A program made the position numbers. Shown in pieces: positions 12,401-15,400 of a stretch of 64,000 nucleotides of DNA (position 1 is its first letter; every line of letters begins with the position of its first letter). The stretch is from Escherichia coli (GTDB taxonomy: Bacteria > Pseudomonadota > Gammaproteobacteria > Enterobacterales > Enterobacteriaceae), in NCBI RefSeq assembly GCF_045037415.1, contig NZ_CP173438.1; one strand, given 5' to 3'.

Positions 12401-15400
12401 AGATCCAGAGCCAGCTCGACAGTATGGTTAACGGCGAGCAATCGCAGATTGTGAGCTTAAGAGCGCAACTTACTGAAGCAAAATATAACCTTGAGCAGAC
12501 CGTCATTCGCGCACCGAGCAATGGCTACGTCACTCAGGTACTGATCCGCCCAGGTACATACGCCGCTGCCTTGCCGCTGCGTCCGGTGATGGTCTTCATC
12601 CCCGAGCAAAAACGGCAAATTGTCGCCCAATTTCGGCAAAACTCGCTGTTACGTCTGAAACCCGGCGATGATGCGGAAGTGGTGTTTAACGCGCTACCTG
12701 GGCAGGTGTTTCACGGCAAACTGACCAGTATTTTACCTGTCGTGCCAGGCGGTTCTTATCAGGCGCAGGGGGTATTGCAATCATTAACGGTCGTGCCCGG
12801 CACGGACGGTGTGCTGGGAACCATTGAGCTGGACCCTAACGCTGATATCGATGCCTTACCCGACGGCATCTACGCCCAGGTGGCAGTTTACTCCGACCAT
12901 TTCAGCCATGTTTCGGTGATGCGGAAAGTGCTGCTAAGAATGACCAGTTGGATGCATTATCTTTATTTGGATCATTGAGACTTGTATCACCTGTGTTTTG
13001 CGCGAGCCTGAGCCATACTGATATTTTTCCTCGCACAAAGGACTCGGCATGAAACTCGTCGGTAGCTACACCAGCCCGTTTGTACGCAAACTTTCTATTC
13101 TGTTGTTAGAAAAGGGCATAACGTTCGAATTTATTAATGAACTGCCCTATAACGCGGACAACGGCGTGGCGCAATTTAACCCGTTAGGAAAAGTGCCGGT
13201 GCTGGTGACCGAAGAGGGCGAATGCTGGTTTGATTCGCCGATCATCGCTGAATATATTGAATTAATGAATGTTGCTCCGGCGATGTTGCCGCGTGATCCG
13301 CTGGAGTCGTTGCGGGTGCGCAAAATTGAGGCGCTGGCGGATGGCATTATGGATGCCGGGCTGGTATCGGTGCGTGAACAGGCGCGTCCGGCGGCGCAGC
13401 AGTCTGAAGATGAATTGTTACGTCAGCGTGAGAAAATCAACCGCAGTCTGGATGTGCTGGAAGGATATCTGGTCGATGGCACGCTCAAAACCGATACGGT
13501 CAATCTGGCGACTATCGCCATTGCCTGTGCGGTCGGATATCTCAATTTCCGCCGCGTTGCGCCAGGCTGGTGTGTCGACCGCCCACACTTAGTCAAACTG
13601 GTCGAAAACCTGTTTAGCCGCGAAAGTTTTGCTCGCACCGAACCGCCAAAGGCTTGATGCGCGATATGTCCTCCTGACCCATCTCACGTTACAATCCGTG
13701 GTTATGTTAAACGCCCTTCTCCGTGTGAGAGGGCCTTGATCAGCCAGGTTTCCTATGACAACCGAAACGCGTTCCCTCTATAGTCAACTTCCGGCTATTG
13801 ATCGCTTATTGCGCGATAGCTCCTTCCTTTCTTTGCGTGATACTTATGGTCACACCCGCGTGGTGGAATTGCTGCGTCAGATGCTTGACGAAGCGCGAGA
13901 AGTGATTCGTGACAGCCAGACGCTGCCCGCGTGGTGTGAAAACTGGGCGCAAGAAGTCGATGCCCGGTTGACGAAAGAGGCGCAAAGCGCGCTGCGTCCG
14001 GTGATCAACCTGACGGGAACCGTGCTGCATACCAACCTTGGGCGAGCTTTACAGGCGGAAGCCGCGGTGGAAGCCGTTACGAAGGCTATGCGTTCGCCAG
14101 TGACCCTCGAGTACGATCTGGACGACGCCGGACGTGGACATCGCGATCGGGCGCTGGCGCAGCTGCTGTGCCGTATTACGGGGGCGGAAGATGCCTGTAT
14201 CGTTAATAACAATGCGGCGGCGGTGTTATTGATGTTGGCGGCCACTGCCAGCGGGAAAGAGGTGGTGGTTTCTCGCGGCGAACTGGTGGAGATTGGCGGC
14301 GCGTTTCGTATTCCCGATGTTATGCGTCAGGCAGGATGCACCCTACACGAAGTAGGGACCACCAACCGCACGCACGCGAATGATTATCGTCAGGCGGTGA
14401 ATGAAAATACCGCACTGTTGATGAAAGTACATACCAGTAACTACAGCATTCAGGGGTTCACCAAAGCGATAGATGAAGCGGAACTGGTGGCGCTCGGCAA
14501 AGAACTGGATGTTCCAGTGGTGACTGATTTAGGCAGTGGCTCGCTGGTCGATCTTAGCCAGTACGGTTTGCCGAAAGAGCCAATGCCGCAGGAGTTGATT
14601 GCGGCGGGCGTCAGTCTGGTGAGCTTCTCCGGCGACAAGCTGTTAGGCGGGCCGCAGGCAGGAATTATTGTTGGTAAAAAAGAAATGATCGCCCGCCTGC
14701 AAAGCCACCCGCTGAAGCGTGCATTACGCGCGGATAAAATGACCCTCGCGGCGCTGGAAGCCACGTTGCGTCTTTATTTACACCCTGAAGCTCTGAGTGA
14801 AAAATTACCGACCCTGCGCCTGCTTACCCGCAGCGCAGAGGTCATTCAAATCCAGGCACAACGTTTACAGGCTCTCCTTGCCGCACATTACGGCGCGGAG
14901 TTTGCGGTACAGGTTATGCCATGTCTTTCGCAGATCGGCAGTGGTTCGCTGCCGGTTGATCGCCTGCCGAGCGCGGCATTAACGTTTACCCCCCATGATG
15001 GACGCGGTAGCCACCTTGAGTCATTAGCCGCCCGCTGGCGTGAATTGCCAGTGCCGGTGATTGGTCGTATTTATGACGGACGATTGTGGCTGGATTTACG
15101 CTGCCTTGAAGATGAGCAACGGTTTTTGGAGATGTTGTTGAAATGATTATTACGACTGCCGGACACGTTGACCACGGCAAAACAACCTTGTTGCAGGCGA
15201 TTACGGGCGTAAATGCCGACCGTCTGCCGGAAGAAAAAAAGCGCGGCATGACCATCGATCTCGGCTATGCCTACTGGCCGCAGCCGGATGGTCGCGTGCC
15301 TGGTTTTATCGACGTACCCGGTCATGAAAAGTTTCTTTCCAACATGCTGGCGGGCGTTGGTGGTATCGATCACGCGCTGTTGGTGGTGGCGTGCGATGAC

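Follow-up and report, generated by a model that had tools for sequence, protein, structure and literature searches.

The RhsA element of Escherichia coli K-12 reportedly comprises 8,249 bp, against an unrelated sequence of 32 bp at the corresponding position in an Rhs-free isolate (Feulner et al. 1990). The empty rhsA site of that account is reported to have the same flanks as the site described here and the same two lengths, 8,249 against 32 bp; it belongs to a different strain from ours, and the likeness is one of lengths. An empty RhsA site is a common strain-to-strain polymorphism, already known and described since 1990. A survey by Jackson et al. (2009) numbers the yibF/yibH site as Rhs position 10, counts 0 rhs genes in the B2 strains 536, CFT073, APEC O1 and E2348/69, and places the origin of position 10, by inference, after these B2 strains had split off (PMC2935791). 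That survey covered 20 strains, without base-level junctions (PMC2935791). Position 10 is the same chromosomal site, with the same flanking genes, as the junction analysed here, and what the present analysis supplies for this known polymorphism, relative to the survey, is its base-level junctions (between positions 12979 and 12980 and between 13011 and 13012) and its current frequencies in 5,426 complete E. coli genomes.

The junction lies within the window, which is the whole 64-kb stretch of E. coli DNA that was analysed, in a run of five co-oriented genes on the + strand, yibI-yibH-yibF-selA-selB. The first of these, yibI (11477..11839), encodes a DUF3302 protein (Pfam) 100% identical to MG1655 YibI. 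The left flank of the junction is yibH (11842..12978), a 378-aa open reading frame with its TGA stop at 12976-12978, whose product is an HlyD-family membrane fusion protein with HlyD/CusB-type Pfam domains. The right flank is yibF (13049..13657), a 202-aa open reading frame with its ATG at 13049-13051, whose glutathione S-transferase-like product has a GST domain (Pfam), and selA-selB (13755..16987) follows in the same orientation. These identities rest on the list of open reading frames, on tblastn, by which YibH of the window is 99.5% and YibF 100% identical to the MG1655 proteins, and on the RefSeq annotation of the near-identical strain SK1144, which has yibI, yibH, yibF and selA-selB, with yibH and yibF at the same coordinates. 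Both genes flanking the junction are full length and stand in their K-12 relative order and orientation. The sequence and the open reading frames place exactly 70 bp between them (12979..13048, + strand), the spacing that the original prediction had given for this gap; as a fixed feature of the structure, it involves no element of chance.

Over its whole length the window is 99.99% identical to SK1144, a phylogroup B2 strain (PMC12366417, Table 2), except for a 1-bp indel and an extra IS150 in the window. The junction between this IS150 and the hokA locus is common to 881 of the 5,426 complete genomes, with O25b:H4 strains as the top matches, and the sequence source is most probably an ST131-like B2 strain. 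The host lineage, B2, is known to be without the RhsA-B-C-F subfamily, and the absence of Rhs reported here is that seen within the 64-kb window.

In MG1655 (NC_000913.3), yibF occupies 3761347-3761955 and yibH 3770243-3771379, and between them lie, in order, rhsA, yibA, yibJ, yibG, yibS, yibW, yibV and yibU. The K-12 arrangement on which the original prediction was built, with rhsA and its associated small genes at this junction, agrees with the MG1655 gene order, and yibH does not directly adjoin yibF there. The K-12 RhsA element, a Rhs polymorphic-toxin locus, occupies exactly this site in K-12, and an element with another tip region occupies it in O157:H7. None of the K-12 element is present in the window: a search with the 8,249-bp element against all 64 kb gave no blastn match at E<=1e-3, and neither Rhs core, H-rpt nor the ends of the K-12 element have left a trace in the 70-bp gap. 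The site is unoccupied in this strain, as had been predicted.

The alignment to MG1655 that had been proposed for locating the insertion point did define the two breakpoints, between 12979 and 12980 and between 13011 and 13012 (blastn and manual alignment), but it did not yield a clean insertion point. Positions 9001..12979 of the window are collinear with the yibH side of K-12 (97.7% identity, blastn) and positions 13012..17000 with the yibF side (97.5% identity, blastn). Where the window has a 32-bp segment specific to the empty site (12980..13011, + strand; ACTTGTATCACCTGTGTTTTGCGCGAGCCTGA), for which K-12 has no counterpart, K-12 has exactly 8,249 bp, so the difference between the two is a substitution. 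The remaining 37 bp of the gap (13012..13048, + strand), which form the yibF leader, are 100% identical in K-12 and O157 and hence common to empty and occupied strains.

No direct repeat or target-site duplication was found above shuffle level at the ends of the K-12 element, and the best alignment of its ends as terminal inverted repeats scored 11, within the range of shuffled controls (mean 10.3, maximum 18). With neither target duplication nor terminal inverted repeats, the occupied allele of K-12 does not have the marks of a transposon- or IS-type insertion. Nor does the window show a deletion scar of an Rhs element, since yibH and yibF are both complete and neither element nor IS sequence is present between them. 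Raised divergence beside the junction, as would be left by co-imported donor DNA, was sought in the window and K-12 flanks and was not found: in the 1.4 kb of yibH and yibF nearest to it there are 1-6 differences per 200 bp, not above the remaining flanks. Divergence between the window and K-12 flanks, at about 2.4%, is ordinary for B2 versus K-12, with no local mosaic at the junction.

A scan for relatives of YibF, with one genome per species, returned 55 loci. In 13 of these, comprising two further E. coli and 11 others, yibH stands 61-92 bp upstream of yibF, the outgroups with this spacing including E. whittamii, Escherichia sp. E1V33, Citrobacter amalonaticus, Kluyvera cryocrescens, Lelliottia, Huaxiibacter, Pluralibacter and other Enterobacteriaceae; yibI-yibH lies directly upstream of yibF in these outgroup loci and in the two further E. 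coli. The yibH-yibF adjacency is also kept in C. koseri, with a gap of 174 bp. Segment 12980..13011 itself has 2-3 differences in E. whittamii and Escherichia sp. E1V33 and is still recognisable in Citrobacter amalonaticus. These data show that yibI-yibH-(70 bp)-yibF-selA-selB is the ancestral enterobacterial gene order.

Among the 5,426 complete E. coli genomes, the contiguous empty junction was present in 1,522 (28%; 1,521 with a longer query). The K-12-type junction was found on the yibF side in 3,751 and on the yibH side in 3,724, giving about 3,750 genomes (69%) with an Rhs element bounded by exactly the K-12 junctions. The two states, empty or K-12-type, cover 97% of the genomes, leaving about 3%, by difference, in a rearranged or other state. 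An example of this last class is E. coli QL57EC, in which an IS1 abuts a 5'-truncated yibF (locus 11288..12538); this strain is without mtlR, mtlD, mtlA, yibI, yibH and the Rhs site, and has a second IS1 nearby in the yiaU-yiaL region. Empty sites are not limited to B2-like backgrounds and occur also in strains 405, E2 and PK8275, whose flanks are nearer to K-12/O157 than to the window in five of six comparisons, the yibF side of PK8275 being equidistant. These three strains have their own variant of the 32-bp segment, with two differences from that of the window, so the empty allele has long been evolving together with its surroundings.

The element of O157:H7 is 6.5 kb long and has a different tip and immunity region, and its two breakpoints are the same as those of K-12. 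Identical junctions in K-12 and O157:H7 point to one founding event followed by internal diversification. On this view an Rhs element, consisting of rhsA and the tip, immunity and H-rpt genes downstream of it, would have entered an ancestor of most non-B2 E. coli in a single event, landing between the stop codon of yibH and the yibF -10 region at the cost of 32 bp. As the absence of target duplication and of terminal inverted repeats speaks against transposition, this event was more probably an illegitimate or recombinational insertion, and homologous recombination in the flanks would later have carried the occupied allele from strain to strain. The allele would then have spread and diversified internally, to 8.2 kb in K-12 and 6.5 kb in O157, with both junctions kept. 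The identical junctions on which we infer this probable single origin are such that recombinational spread is here indistinguishable from vertical descent.

The 37-bp leader contains a -10-like hexamer, CATACT (13014-13019), and a Shine-Dalgarno sequence, AAGGA (13038-13042). Of the 53 enterobacterial loci from outside E. coli that were examined, 39 have a CATACT or CATAAT hexamer 35-38 nt before the yibF ATG (44 nt in one locus), whichever gene stands upstream of yibF. This conservation suggests that CATACT is the -10 element of a yibF promoter. A scan of 12800-13200 against the sigma-70 promoter consensus found no full promoter, and a scan of the same interval for intrinsic terminators found none. 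RNA folding of 12960-13060 was no more stable than that of shuffled sequence (z = 0.17), with no sign of a structured RNA, and an Rfam scan of the whole window placed no family in or near the 70-bp gap.

The breakpoint between 13011 and 13012 lies 2 nt upstream of the CATACT hexamer, so that in occupied strains the spacer and the -35 region of the putative yibF promoter would consist of element DNA. The probable yibF promoter would in this way have exchanged its upstream half for element sequence in those strains, and yibIH would have been separated from yibF-selAB by 8 kb that include rhsA, which is transcribed divergently. Where the site is empty, as in this strain, yibF would retain its native upstream sequence directly 3' of yibIH, and, as there is no recognisable terminator between yibH and yibF, transcriptional read-through from yibIH would be possible. 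These predicted consequences for promoter and read-through draw on the conservation of the hexamer across genera.

We consider it highly probable (roughly 0.93) that, in this phylogroup B2 (ST131-like) E. coli, the yibH-yibF junction at 12979..13048 is native and has never been occupied, the window representing the state before insertion. Judged by comparison with the outgroup sequences, the empty site is the ancestral state, since deletion of an element could not recreate the 32 bp that are found in the Escherichia outgroups. The near-complete preservation of these 32 bp in E. whittamii and Escherichia sp. E1V33 weighs directly against the alternative that an ancestor of this strain did have RhsA and lost it secondarily, by deletion or by homologous replacement from an empty-site donor. 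Rhs elements are unstable and have been lost in some strains, the IS1-bounded deletion of QL57EC extends from mtlR to the 5' end of yibF, and the empty sites in strains whose flanks are nearer to K-12/O157 than to B2 make allele replacement conceivable in some lineages. A deletion could not have restored the segment, however, and the flanks of the window, with their ordinary B2-versus-K-12 divergence of about 2.4%, show no local mosaic beside the junction; B2 genomes are moreover without this Rhs subfamily altogether (PMC2935791). Secondary loss is thus already disfavoured, and we regard it as highly improbable.

A native junction in the window leaves room for a more complicated history of the site elsewhere in Escherichia. 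In E. albertii NBRC 107761 neither arrangement is seen: a YiiM-like gene with a MOSC domain (Pfam; 89..781 of the locus segment 1..850) replaces yibH and ends 57 bp upstream of yibF, and the segment with this gene gave no megablast match among complete E. coli genomes. In Escherichia sp. MOD1-EC7003, a short remnant of an Rhs element includes an H-rpt-type open reading frame, and the junction on the yibF side is of the K-12 type. As neither genome has a simple empty site, the site has been disturbed more than once in Escherichia. Homology of E. albertii to K-12 also continues for 17 bp past the breakpoint between B2 and K-12, with 15 of 19 identities to K-12 beyond it against 9 of 19 for the window (manual count), and several genera have a CTGCC-TTTT motif in common at the yibF-proximal position. 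Together with the MOSC gene in place of yibH and the remnant in MOD1-EC7003, these similarities would fit a multi-allelic integration hotspot instead of simple presence or absence, in which the yibF-proximal 17-19 bp or so of K-12 are an alternative native allele. Against this, chance could account for the similarity of so short a stretch, which is T/C-rich and of low complexity; apart from the 17 bp in E. albertii, comparison of the element-proximal sequence of K-12 with intergenic regions of other genera gave weak, low-complexity similarity. The E. albertii sequence could alternatively be left over from a lost element, and just two states account for 97% of E. coli genomes. We think a hotspot of this kind unlikely, and that the yibF-proximal 17-19 bp of the 8,249-bp element are an alternative native allele and not Rhs DNA is only possible. 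In an extended form of the proposal, which seems to us quite unlikely, the upstream half of the yibF(-selAB) promoter would differ according to the cargo that supplies it (Rhs element, MOSC gene or nothing), and carriage of Rhs would thereby rewire expression of the selenocysteine genes; were it true, the classical 8,249-bp figure for RhsA would be about 17-19 bp too long.

For a never-occupied junction in the window, the finding matters little beyond correct annotation, as an ancestral Rhs-free allele that fits the B2 (ST131-like) background. As a simple PCR or in-silico marker, the junction could tell strains with RhsA from those without it. The breakpoint, lying as it does beside the probable yibF -10 element, offers a minor lead on expression of yibF and selAB in B2 versus other E. 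coli.

Several other features were observed in the window. The IS150 that is absent from SK1144 lies at 55468..56910 (insJ 55515..56036, insK 56033..56884), with imperfect terminal inverted repeats and a 3-bp AAG target duplication, 74 bp upstream of hokA (56985..57137). K-12 also has an IS150 in the hokA locus, with the same junction nucleotide on the glyS side, but it is inverted and K-12 is without 43 bp that are present in the window (56911-56953), so the two insertions look independent. A full-length Rfam match to the sok antitoxin (RF01794; 89 bits, 55391..55544) spans the boundary between the chromosome and the left end of the IS150 (55468), so that roughly half of it consists of IS DNA.

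Downstream of selAB, yiaY and aldB flank a Fic-family gene (18459..19754) that O157:H7 also has, whereas in MG1655 the spacing of yiaY and aldB is only 165 bp. Between aldB and araD/sgbE, the segment 21581..26002 encodes a GH127 glycoside hydrolase (frameshifted in SK1144), an MFS transporter and an AraC regulator. The genes yiaW-yiaV-yiaU-yiaT, which follow aldB in O157:H7, are missing from the window; yiaWV is a paralogous pair of yibIH, with a DNA identity of about 68%. In the yiaK-S (2,3-diketo-L-gulonate) cluster, a DUF4862-family gene (32595..33515) is annotated between yiaL and yiaM, where K-12 is not known to have a gene. At the other end of the window, the region between lldP and yibL holds a DUF3251 gene (4882..5562, - strand) and a gene for a YadA-like trimeric autotransporter of 1,447 aa (495..4838, - strand), in the region of which an internal repeat was seen, 3112-3266 and 3259-3413 being 90% identical.
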